Origin: a phage | DNA: 51,960 nucleotides | Strand: one strand, 5' to 3' | Sequence record: PZ000615.1 | Shown: piece by piece, positions 4,422 through 7,217 of the stretch | Layout: each line of letters opens with the position of its first letter | How positions within the stretch are numbered: position 1 is the stretch's first letter | Notes under the pieces: model-generated | Databases searched by the model: none | The model's input: only the letters and a program-made list of their open reading frames with translations | What the model was told of the DNA's origin: nothing | Position numbers and translations under genes: made by a program

Positions 4422-4501
4422 TGCGATACGCTTTGATCCCGTTGGCGACACTAATTGCAGTTGTCGCACTCTTTCAAACCATCATGATTTACAACTAAGG
4501 A
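4421..4501 (+). CDS. Small hydrophobic peptide (26 aa), possible membrane protein
   Basis: ATG at 4421 overlapping upstream stop; translation MRYALIPLATLIAVVALFQTIMIYN; below track length cutoff. Confidence 0.3.
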
Positions 4502-4507
4502 ATCACC

Positions 4508-5644
4508 ATGCAACAGAAGATTACAGACGAACAATTGATCGCTGAGCGCGAATCCGGCAAAACTCAGCGTCAGATCGCTCAAGAGTACGGAATGAACATC
4601 CGAACCATCGAGCAACGTTGCGCACGCCTTGCAAAGAAAGGCCATGGTCACGGAAACAAGCACGTGTCTGTTCACGTTCCAGAAGGTTTCGCCGTAAAGG
4701 GAACCTCCACCATGATTCGCGGCAACGGCGAGGAGGTTGTTCGTTGGGTTAAGACCGACCAGGACAAAGAAAAAATGGCGGCAATGATGGACGCTGCTAT
4801 CGAGGCTTTCTGTGAGGAAATCCCACGAGCAACTCCACAAGAAAACAAGCTTGATGGAAAGTTTGTTGAGGGTCAGCTAGCTCTATATCCGGTATTTGAT
4901 CTGCACATTGGCGCTATGGCTCATAAGCACGAATGCGGTGAAAACTACTCAACCGACATCTCTGAGAAAGTCCTTAAGGACTTCTTTGAATACGCTGTTG
5001 AGATTTCACCTCATGCAGAAAAGGCCGTTCTTTTAATCGGCGGTGACTTCTTGCACTCTGACGGATTGGACGCGGTGACACCTGCTAGCGGTCACGTTCT
5101 GGATCAGGACTCGCGCTACGCTAAGCTTGTTCACGTAGCTATCCGATCTGTTCGTCGTGCTGTTTCGAAAATGCTGGATAAGCACAATGAAGTTGAGATC
5201 CAGATTATCGAAGGGAACCACGACCAGGCCGGAATGATCTGGCTGCGCGCTTCAATGGCGGCATTCTATGAAGATGAGCCGCGAGTGAATGTCGACGTTA
5301 GCCCTATGATCCTACACCGGACAAAGTGGGGTAAAACGCTATTGGGTTATACTCACGGTCACACCATGAAGAAAGCCGAAACCCGACTCTCAGCCATGGC
5401 GACAGATTTCCGTGAAGAGTTCGGAACAAGCAAGTACATTTACACGCACTCCGGACACTGGCACCATCAGACAATCACTGAGCACAGCTTAGGCATTGAC
5501 GAGGTTCACGGTCAGCTCGGAGCTAAGGACGCATACGCAGCTCGCGGCGGCTGGCGCTCATATCGTCAGGCGGCTGTCATTGTCTACTCCAAAGAGTTTG
5601 GCGAAATCGGGCGCTTTGTGTATCGCCCAGAAATGAGCAAGTAA
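4508..5644 (+). CDS. Calcineurin-like metallophosphoesterase with N-terminal HTH domain
   Basis: AAGGA SD before ATG 4508; motifs DLHIG (DxH), GGDFLHSDG (GDxxD), EGNHDQ (GNHD/E), HSGHWHH (GHxH); N-terminal QRQIAQEYGMNIRTIEQR HTH-like. Confidence 0.65.
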   Translation: MQQKITDEQLIAERESGKTQRQIAQEYGMNIRTIEQRCARLAKKGHGHGNKHVSVHVPEGFAVKGTSTMIRGNGEEVVRWVKTDQDKEKMAAMMDAAIEAFCEEIPRATPQENKLDGKFVEGQLALYPVFDLHIGAMAHKHECGENYSTDISEKVLKDFFEYAVEISPHAEKAVLLIGGDFLHSDGLDAVTPASGHVLDQDSRYAKLVHVAIRSVRRAVSKMLDKHNEVEIQIIEGNHDQAGMIWLRASMAAFYEDEPRVNVDVSPMILHRTKWGKTLLGYTHGHTMKKAETRLSAMATDFREEFGTSKYIYTHSGHWHHQTITEHSLGIDEVHGQLGAKDAYAARGGWRSYRQAAVIVYSKEFGEIGRFVYRPEMSK

Positions 5645-5691
5645 AACCAACAAGGGGCGGCTTTCGCCCCTAACCATAAGGAATCACACCG

Positions 5692-6207
5692 ATGATTTTT
5701 GAGCCTCACTATGAAGCGCCTCGCGTCGTTATTTTTGACTATGACGGAACGCTATCCGATGGAACTCACCGTTTGCACCTGCTGCCAACGAAAGACCAAC
5801 ACTTAACTGAAACATGGATTCCGTTTAATGCGGCCTGTGTTTATGATTCTCCAATCCGTGACACAATTGACGTGATGAATGCAATGTATGACGCAGGATT
5901 TTACGTCATCATTCTGACTGGTCGAAGTGATCACGTTTACGATGAGTCAGTAAAATGGCTGAAAGATAACGGCGCTCGTTACCATCATATGGAGATGCGA
6001 AAGCAGACCGACAATCGCAGAGACACAATCATCAAAGAGGAATACTTGCGCGGCATCGGCCTTGAAAACATCGTTGCAGCCTGGGACGACAGCCCGAACG
6101 TTATTGAGCATTTCCGCAACCTTGGGATTACCGTTTACCAGGTTTTCGATTACGGCGACAAGCTTCACAGTCGCACAGACTTAAAATCTCACGGAGTAGA
6201 AAAATAA
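5692..6207 (+). CDS. HAD-superfamily phosphatase (nucleotidase / polynucleotide 3'-phosphatase-like)
   Basis: N-terminal VVIFDYDGTLSDG (DxDGT motif); AAGGA SD. Confidence 0.6.
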   Translation: MIFEPHYEAPRVVIFDYDGTLSDGTHRLHLLPTKDQHLTETWIPFNAACVYDSPIRDTIDVMNAMYDAGFYVIILTGRSDHVYDESVKWLKDNGARYHHMEMRKQTDNRRDTIIKEEYLRGIGLENIVAAWDDSPNVIEHFRNLGITVYQVFDYGDKLHSRTDLKSHGVEK

Positions 6208-6788
6208 TGATTATCATTTTGAACGCACCAGCCGGAGCCGGAAAAGACACCATTCAGCAAGCAATTGCGGAGCTGCATGAGGTGTCACAGCTCAGCTTTA
6301 AAAAGCCTATGTTCGCTATGGCTAATGCCATGCTTGGCGATCTGGGGTTCATGGAATTCATGGACGCCTACAACAACCGCGAGCGAAAAGAAAAGCCACT
6401 TGAATTGCTTCACGGCTCAAGCCCTCGGCAGTTCATGATCTGGCTGAGTGAGAGCGTTATTAAACCTCACTTTGGCGACAAGCATTTTGGTAATCTGCTT
6501 TATGACGATTACATTATGCACGAGAATGACGGCTACTATGTCGGAGTTGTCAGCGACGGCGGGTTTGAGAGTGAGACGATTGCTCTGATCGATACTGGAG
6601 TTCCGGTTCGTCTTGTTCGACTTCATCGTGACGGCTACTCGTTTGCCGGAGACTCACGCGATTATGTCAGTCTGCCGCTCTACGCTAATAGCCCTACGTA
6701 TGACTACCAAGAGTTTGACGTTCAGTTAACTGAAGGTTTGCCAGTTGTGGCGGCGCTGGATATTCTCTCAATGGTCGGGTTGAAATAG
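6207..6788 (+). CDS. P-loop kinase, deoxynucleoside monophosphate kinase-like
   Basis: N-terminal IIILNAPAGAGKDT (GxxxxGKD/T P-loop as in phage dNMP kinases); TAATG coupling to upstream gene. Confidence 0.55.
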   Translation: MIIILNAPAGAGKDTIQQAIAELHEVSQLSFKKPMFAMANAMLGDLGFMEFMDAYNNRERKEKPLELLHGSSPRQFMIWLSESVIKPHFGDKHFGNLLYDDYIMHENDGYYVGVVSDGGFESETIALIDTGVPVRLVRLHRDGYSFAGDSRDYVSLPLYANSPTYDYQEFDVQLTEGLPVVAALDILSMVGLK

Positions 6789-7193: not shown

Positions 7194-7217
7194 GGGAGCC
7201 TTTAGGCTCCCTTTTTG
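7194..7217 (+). terminator. Rho-independent terminator
   Basis: GGGAGCC-TTTA-GGCTCCC followed by TTTTT. Confidence 0.6.

Follow-up and report, generated by a model that had tools for sequence, protein, structure and literature searches.

A gene at 4508..5644 on the plus strand of sequence record PZ000615.1 encodes a protein of 378 residues (plus a stop codon) in which a helix-turn-helix (HTH) domain precedes a metallophosphoesterase (MPE) catalytic domain. The whole 51,960-nt stretch that was analysed, termed the window below, is the complete, circularly permuted genome of a T1-like siphophage (Drexlerviridae). A fusion of these two domains had been proposed at this position in an earlier note made from the letters alone, and the open reading frame (ORF), the motifs, the structural models and the family-level profiles all bear this out. 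We estimate a probability of about 0.5 that the protein is an HTH-tethered, metal-dependent nuclease with DNA as its substrate, and of about 0.3 that its role is breakdown of the host chromosome. A narrower proposal, held more tentatively still, is that the orthologues T1 gp16, TLS gp66 and Bas01_0050 are the T1-type nuclease that destroys the host chromosome and that the resulting DNA fragments or ends are sensed by the reverse-transcriptase defence DRT7. Sensing of nuclease-made ends would explain why phages escape this defence by losing the gene, in parallel with lambda Gam and, for another defence, T2 DenA. The protein belongs to a known family, PHROG 704, which is a distinct clade of the MPE superfamily and not a new kind of system. 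The caution of the earlier note, that function is not assignable from sequence alone, still applies.

The catalytic domain (residues 120–378; 4865..5641, plus strand, as are all motifs below) contains all seven metal ligands of the MPE superfamily, namely D131, H133, D180, N237, H283, H317 and H319. Conservation was assessed in three alignments, comprising 25 close relatives, 22 diverse relatives and 117 representatives with 29–40% identity to the query. One 396-residue representative (P0121), with internally duplicated MPE segments and frameshift-like stretches, was left out as it is probably an assembly or gene-calling artefact. Motif I, D131-L-H133 (4898..4906), was invariant in all three alignments. 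Motif II, G179-D180-F-L-H183-S-D185 (5042..5062), is of the GDxxH type with D180 conserved in 100%, H183 in 97% and D185 in 92% of sequences. Motif III, G236-N237-H238-D239 (5213..5224), has invariant N237 and H238; motif IV, H283-G284-H285 (5354..5362), has an invariant H283 and 81% conservation of H285; and motif V, G316-H317-W-H319 (5453..5464), has an invariant H319 and 97% conservation of H317. Across the 117 representatives the invariant residues were D131, H133, D180, N237, H238, H283 and H319. The same pattern in all three alignments indicates that the seven metal ligands are under strong selection. All five calcineurin-like motifs listed in the earlier note are thus present, but motif II, which it gave as GDxxD, reads GDFLH-S-D.

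AlphaFold2 models had a predicted local distance difference test score (pLDDT) of 76 with a shallow alignment and of 95, with a predicted template-modelling score of 0.85, when the 117-sequence alignment was used. The four-layer beta-sandwich characteristic of MPEs was present. Three conserved inserts by the active site (residues 134–150, 184–204 and 335–353) showed conservation above the domain average and were confidently modelled solely with the deep alignment. No capping domain was found, the 59 residues that follow motif V (46–81 in the family) forming the last core strands, and the motifs GDxVDRG and GNHE of the PPP Ser/Thr phosphatases (lambda NinI type) were absent. The Pfam Metallophos profile (PF00149) did not match this protein even at E≤1 and matched 27 of the 117 relatives at E<0.01 (best 2.7e-5), which points to divergence rather than exclusion from the superfamily.

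The structure prediction and fold comparison proposed in the earlier note as a check placed nuclease MPEs nearest to this protein. In Foldseek searches with the shallow-alignment model, the first PDB match was Methanocaldococcus jannaschii Mre11 (E 1.8e-7), followed by LpxH, Vps29 and Rv0805, all with probability 1.0, and nuclease MPEs (Mre11, SbcD and PolD DP1) ranked narrowly ahead of generic phosphodiesterases. The structure of the Pseudomonas putida 'Nuclease MPE' (6NVO) was missing from the top structural matches. Searches of PDB sequences with the single protein and with two family profiles gave nothing significant; the top profile matches were Thermotoga maritima Mre11/SbcD (E 0.22) and 6NVO, with E values of 0.2–0.3. 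PdeM (TIGR04123) was the sole MPE-type NCBIfam family matched by the relatives (38 of 117, best E 1.6e-5), in every case at a score well short of the 150-bit cut-off; this protein scored 18.3 bits, with coverage of the motif III region alone. Two histidines of PdeM, the P. putida MPE, are essential for DNA cleavage and not for hydrolysis of bis-p-nitrophenyl phosphate, namely His81 of GDFLH and His113 of GNHD; this monomeric enzyme has no capping domain, and the ends that it generates are partly 3'-PO4 and partly 3'-OH (PMC7826289). Motif II of the present protein aligns with the GDFLH81 of this enzyme and with GDLLHS of T. maritima Mre11, and in the alignment H183 and H238 are the equivalents of His81 and of the general acid His113.

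The earlier note had allotted about 50 residues to the N-terminal domain. The region ahead of the catalytic domain is in fact about 118 residues long and consists of the HTH followed by a beta-hairpin and a helix. The HTH is a three-helix domain of the sigma-70 region 4, LuxR and HTH_23-28 type (residues ~5–45; 4520..4642, plus strand; from the model and profiles), with helices at residues 7–15, 20–26 and 31–43 and a pLDDT of about 95 in the deep-alignment model. Matches were weak for this protein alone: HTH_24 reached E 0.004, under the Pfam gathering score, sub-threshold matches to sigma-70 region 4, LuxR-type and IS630 profiles were obtained with Pfam and NCBIfam, and the top PDB profile match was the LuxR-type SsrB/EsrB (E 0.24). 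At the level of the family the assignment was solid, with Sigma70_r4_2 at 1.5e-9, GerE at 2.4e-8, HTH_1 in 26 members and matches to many further HTH families. The N-terminal Pfam matches among the 117 relatives were to HTH_1, HTH_8, sigma70_r4 and GerE, with occasional ParB-HTH, KorA and NUMOD-like matches, so that all N-terminal modules seen across the family are of DNA-binding types. At least 99 residues precede motif I in every one of the 117 representatives.

The second N-terminal element, a beta-hairpin (residues 61–85) and helix (87–103) recognized from the secondary structure of the model (4679..4816, plus strand), carries a motif specific to this family, KG-S-T...G.....W-K-T, in which G74 and W80 are about 96% conserved. 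The motif (G.ST...G....W.KT) is tandemly duplicated in some relatives, such as P0170 and P0254, of which the latter also has an N-terminal ParB-like (DGHHR) domain. This duplication and the ParB-like domain suggest that the DNA-targeting part of the family is modular. The hairpin element is retained in a homologue from a Campylobacter phage that lacks the HTH.

T1 gp16 (ST16), TLS gp66 and Bas01_0050 are full-length orthologues at 63–67% identity (TLS gp66, 64%), with the same arrangement of HTH, hairpin and MPE domain. Bas01_0050, from Escherichia phage AugustePiccard (Bas01), is 63% identical over its full length and syntenic; in T1, TLS and Bas01 the gene lies after the helicase and Dam genes and small ORFs, and before the holin/lysis cassette. 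In a 2026 preprint, Bas1 mutants that escape DRT7/UG10 are reported to have acquired missense or frameshift changes in Bas01_0050, described there as a "putative nucleic acid-targeting phosphoesterase" whose expression on its own is toxic to E. coli; lambda escapers of DRT7 map to gam (bioRxiv 10.64898/2026.02.16.706125). The orthologue is apparently dispensable. During infection by T1 and TLS the host genome is broken down and its nucleotides are reused, and T1 mutants that fail to degrade the host chromosome are viable; the 2024 re-annotation of TLS did not assign the early gene responsible and names gp66 a proof-reading exonuclease (PMC11447400 and its references 46 and 47). A role in host-chromosome breakdown would fit the toxicity, the dispensability, the viability of T1 mutants defective in degrading host DNA, the escape from a defence when the gene loses its function and the presence downstream, in this genome, of a phosphatase and a kinase-like gene. 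The interpretation in the earlier note is thus supported in part: its suggestion that the protein is a nuclease or acts in DNA processing gains independent support from the folds, the PdeM matches, H183 and H238, the DNA-binding N-termini and the toxicity of Bas01_0050.

Other defences provide parallels. T2 phages that escape PUA-Cal-HAD, a defence triggered by the breakdown of host DNA, have lost the nuclease DenA; as the paper on PUA-Cal-HAD concerns T2 denA, it was set aside as evidence on the present gene. Lambda and Bas01 are both restricted by two unrelated defences, DRT7 and Retron-Sen3, the latter of which senses inhibition of RecBCD; lambda escapes via gam or exo, and Bas1 escapes DRT7 via the MPE orthologue. 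These findings prompt the question of whether the MPE interferes with RecBCD or with how DNA ends are handled. T1-like phages were absent from the Tn-seq and CRISPRi-ART phage papers, and literature searches on the degradation of host DNA by T1 and on essential genes of the Drexlerviridae gave nothing direct. Identity with the T1 genetic gene 2.5 (host DNA degradation) was considered and is not claimed, as the genetic order could not be mapped onto the sequence.

A mechanism can be proposed from these observations. The protein would be a stand-alone two-metal phosphodiesterase, probably Mn2+-dependent, that acts on DNA and needs no ATPase of the Rad50/SbcC type. The sigma-r4/LuxR-like HTH, aided by the beta-hairpin and helix, would hold the enzyme on DNA while the catalytic domain hydrolyses the backbone by chemistry of the Mre11/PdeM type. 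The two metals would be bound by D131, H133, D180, N237, H283, H317 and H319, a metal-bridged water would attack, and H238 would act as the general acid with support from H183. The gene would be transcribed together with replication genes (helicase and Dam) in a rightward operon, early or middle, that precedes the lysis cassette. A promoter-like site at 159–188, ahead of the helicase, and the next good plus-strand terminator-like site at 7194–7211, before the holin, both of them consensus matches only, indicate that the MPE gene appears to be co-transcribed with the helicase-Dam operon. The host chromosome would then be attacked and its nucleotides reused in the manner of T1 and TLS, here possibly with the help of the downstream 3'-phosphatase and dNMP (deoxynucleoside monophosphate)-kinase-like protein.

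Several points weigh against a host-degrading nuclease. Comparison of the family with E. coli SbcD by hhalign gave a probability of 1.8%, with motif III alone aligned. Most MPEs share the motif III histidine, which is therefore not specific to nucleases. The literature contains no biochemical assay of any family member and genetics for Bas01_0050 alone, and the toxicity of that protein could arise from DNA binding rather than from cutting. As the positions of the Bas1 mutations are absent from the preprint text and supplement, full dispensability is not proven. Members of the family also occur in prophages, as well as in many phages for which no degradation of host DNA is known, and T1-like genomes encode other candidate nucleases (a RecE-like protein, an HNH protein and a PHROG 824 protein). 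The adjacency to phosphatase and kinase-like genes is specific to this lineage and is absent in T1, TLS, NBD2 and Bas01.

Among the alternatives, a DNA nuclease acting on phage DNA survives best, although we regard it as unlikely. Such an enzyme would trim flaps, hairpins, gaps or branched intermediates in RecE/Erf recombination-dependent replication, or before packaging. It agrees with the names given in databases, 'DNA repair exonuclease' and 'proof-reading exonuclease' (TLS gp66), with the likeness of the fold to Mre11/SbcD and PolD DP1, with the RecE-like, Erf-like and SSB proteins encoded in this genome, and with the position of the gene just upstream of lysis/terminase genes in many relatives. 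Neighbours of relatives also point in this direction, namely the junction endonuclease NinG/Rap, which neighbours the MPE gene in 11 of 79 loci, and the ligase and Holliday-junction resolvase of Campylobacter phage F371. However, no conserved partner gene was found in the 79 viral loci gathered with the sub-family alignment, in which the commonest neighbour was present in 11, and T1-like phages have no DNA polymerase to proofread. Toxicity in uninfected cells and escape from DRT7 fit an activity directed at the host at least equally well. A two-gene system like SbcCD was rejected on the same counts, as no neighbour exceeded 11 of the 79 viral loci. No ORF for a Rad50/SbcC-type ATPase was found in the whole 52-kb genome.

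The genes directly downstream bear on a second alternative, which we consider improbable, that the protein heals the ends of broken RNA or DNA, as a 2',3'-cyclic phosphodiesterase or a 3'-phosphatase, and works with a PNKP-type phosphatase and kinase. The MPE gene is followed by a HAD-type PNKP 3'-phosphatase-like gene (171 residues; 5692..6207, plus strand; Pfam HAD_PNKP 6.4e-19, PHROG 415 1.3e-64) and this by a P-loop dNMP-kinase-like gene (193 residues; 6207..6788, plus strand; PHROG 139 3.4e-39), the two being translationally coupled by a TAATG stop/start overlap at 6205–6209. A calcineurin-type phosphoesterase domain is used for end healing in RNA repair by bacterial Pnkp, and mixed 3'-PO4 and 3'-OH ends of the kind left by the P. 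putida MPE would need a 3'-phosphatase. The adjacency is, however, confined to this lineage: the T1 homologues of the phosphatase (PNK, ST64) and of the P-loop gene (ST62) lie ~35 kb away in the left-arm early region, and NBD2, TLS and Bas01 are without such neighbours. This indicates that the phosphatase-kinase module has moved between lineages, and a functional partnership of the MPE with its PNKP-like neighbour is inferred only. In addition, a ligase gene was not found in the genome, the P-loop protein matches dNMP kinases rather than polynucleotide kinases, and an HTH would be an odd device for targeting RNA ends.

Gene position also bears on a third alternative, which we judge very improbable: that the protein acts chiefly in the control of transcription, for instance that of late genes, with an HTH that binds DNA or RNA polymerase and an MPE domain serving as a protein phosphatase or regulatory module. 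In its favour are the resemblance of the HTH to sigma-70 region 4 and LuxR and the location as the last gene before the lysis/terminase genes in T1-like phages and many distant relatives, the position that Q and the MPE-fold phosphatase NinI occupy before the lysis genes in lambda. The viability of the Bas1 frameshift mutants argues against an essential late activator, and the invariance of the catalytic residues over great evolutionary distance argues that selection preserves an enzyme activity.

Equally improbable is a phosphodiesterase of cyclic mono-, di- or oligonucleotides directed against the messengers on which CBASS, Pycsar, Thoeris or type III CRISPR systems rely, an alternative raised in the earlier note for which no positive evidence emerged. 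Structure by itself is compatible with this alternative, but it accords poorly with a DNA-binding module present throughout the family and with the direction in which the orthologue affects DRT7. The DNA-binding N-terminus found in all 117 representatives would be needless in a hydrolase of soluble messengers; known phage messenger-degraders have folds other than the MPE fold (2H phosphoesterase in Acb1, metallo-beta-lactamase in Apyc1); PADLOC and anti-defence family scans gave no matches; the sole reported defence phenotype is sensitisation and not protection; and the toxicity is unexpected in E. coli K-12, which makes no such defence messengers and in which hydrolysis of cyclic AMP might harm but would normally not be lethal.

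The remaining features of the gene and its surroundings are as follows. The coding sequence begins at the first ATG following a stop codon and is preceded by a Shine-Dalgarno sequence, AAGGA (4497..4501, plus strand), read directly from the sequence 6 nt ahead of the ATG. Directly after the stop codon lies a GC-rich hairpin with a 7-bp stem, AGGGGCG-AAAGC-CGCCCCT (5653..5671, no strand assigned), detected by a terminator-like scan and by inspection of the sequence. A T-run follows this hairpin on the minus strand alone, where no gene converges; instead of terminating transcription, the hairpin may serve in RNA stability or processing. The order of genes in the operon is helicase, PHROG 824 protein, Dam, three small ORFs, MPE, HAD PNKP-type phosphatase and dNMP-kinase-like protein. 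The ORF that matches PHROG 824 (158 residues, 2426–2902) overlaps the end of the helicase gene. The NBD2 counterpart of this ORF is labelled 'endonuclease' and that of TLS, in the re-annotation, 'Holliday junction recombinase' (Gp59); its product is another candidate nuclease in the same operon. Between the MPE gene and the lysis genes, the T1-like phages compared here have an HNH endonuclease gene or nothing, in contrast to the phosphatase and kinase-like genes of this genome.

The ORFs of the genome pair one-to-one with those of Bas01, including helicases, primase, RecE-like, Erf-like and SSB proteins, Dam, Dcm, and lysis, terminase, head and tail genes. The replication and modification genes amount to two helicases, a primase, the RecE-like, Erf-like and SSB genes, and both Dam and Dcm-like methyltransferases. 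No DNA polymerase gene was found in the genome, and tRNA and Rfam scans of it were empty. The MPE gene is 85% identical in DNA and 94% identical in protein to that of Enterobacter phage Phc, and an identical protein was found on one 52.5-kb assembled contig.

The family is large and its distribution extends well beyond the Drexlerviridae. In T1-like phages the gene has long been annotated and is probably a core gene, which the earlier note did not recognise. The match to PHROG 704 ("DNA repair exonuclease") was full-length (E 2.5e-156; residues 3–377 on profile positions 2–389 of 390), and members of this family are variously labelled 'DNA repair exonuclease', 'phosphoesterase' and 'proof-reading exonuclease'. 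A profile search of 1.84 billion representative proteins gave 5,519 clusters (50% identity) at E≤1e-3 and 1,427 at E≤1e-30, with members nearly all 370–420 residues in length. By tblastn the gene was detected in 2,072 phage records, from Drexlerviridae and from phages of Salmonella, Klebsiella, Vibrio, Campylobacter, Flavobacterium, Rhodobacter and Ruegeria; Jersey-like, K1G-like, Dhillonvirus and roseophage groups also carry it. Further members were found in prophage-like regions of Pseudomonas, Dyella, Bordetella and Rhizobium chromosomes and in a few records of phage-plasmid size. One record, a 49.6-kb 'Paraclostridium bifermentans' plasmid (CP124687.1, hit H81), is assigned to a Gram-positive anaerobe and has a full-length copy that is 74% identical; the size of the record and this identity point to contamination or to the genome of a T1-like enterobacterial phage filed as a plasmid. 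Distant relatives lie in a nin-like region with NinG/Rap upstream and endolysin, holin, TerS and TerL downstream. In phage F371 (locus L003:3654-5951) the HTH-less homologue (317 residues) is encoded directly after a DNA ligase gene and near a Holliday-junction resolvase gene.

PHROG 704 is among the most widespread phage enzymes without a tested function, and the evidence presented here makes testable a niche question that is 45 years old, namely which T1 gene degrades the host chromosome. The proposed role in host breakdown, if true, would close a gap explicitly left by the 2024 re-annotation of TLS for a T1 function known since 1981, and would suggest what DRT7 detects. It would also provide a handle on transduction frequency in therapeutic T1-like phages. 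T1 mutants that lack host-chromosome destruction are viable and transduce at high frequency. If the protein were merely a repair-type nuclease, the finding would be an ordinary one.

Comparison with characterized systems places the protein beside several MPE nucleases. Mycobacteriophage A10ZJ24 encodes an early-expressed MPE (Gp48, cluster A) that is toxic to the host, breaks down the DNA of the host as well as plasmid and linear DNA, and can be dispensed with in a permissive host (PMC12287305). Gp48 consists of a single small MPE domain (catalytic residues D10, D41 and H175), has neither HTH nor hairpin, and is an analogue in function rather than an orthologue. Mre11, SbcD and T4 gp47 have a C-terminal capping domain and a Rad50/SbcC partner, whereas the DNA-binding module is N-terminal in the present protein. 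PolD DP1 and the B-subunits of eukaryotic polymerases differ in that no OB (oligonucleotide/oligosaccharide-binding)-fold is predicted here, and T1-like phages have no polymerase catalytic subunit to which a protein like DP1 could bind. A further parallel is with PdeM, a ligase-associated, Mn2+-dependent single-stranded DNA endonuclease that likewise stands alone, with no capping domain and no SMC (structural maintenance of chromosomes) partner. The two share the GDFLH and GNHD motifs, including the two DNA-cleavage histidines (H183, 97%; H238, 100%). PdeM differs in its length of about 210 residues, in having no HTH or hairpin and in its location in a Lig-Lhr repair operon, and the present protein has the three conserved inserts. 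The context of a Lig-Lhr-exonuclease operon was not seen, as no ligase or Lhr gene is present in the genome; the ligase adjacency in F371 recalls the bacterial linkage of ligase and PdeM, and F371 has the only ligase-adjacent homologue. The absence of both a capping domain and a Rad50/SbcC partner indicates a separate stand-alone clade, and the protein probably works like PdeM or Mre11 while belonging to neither.

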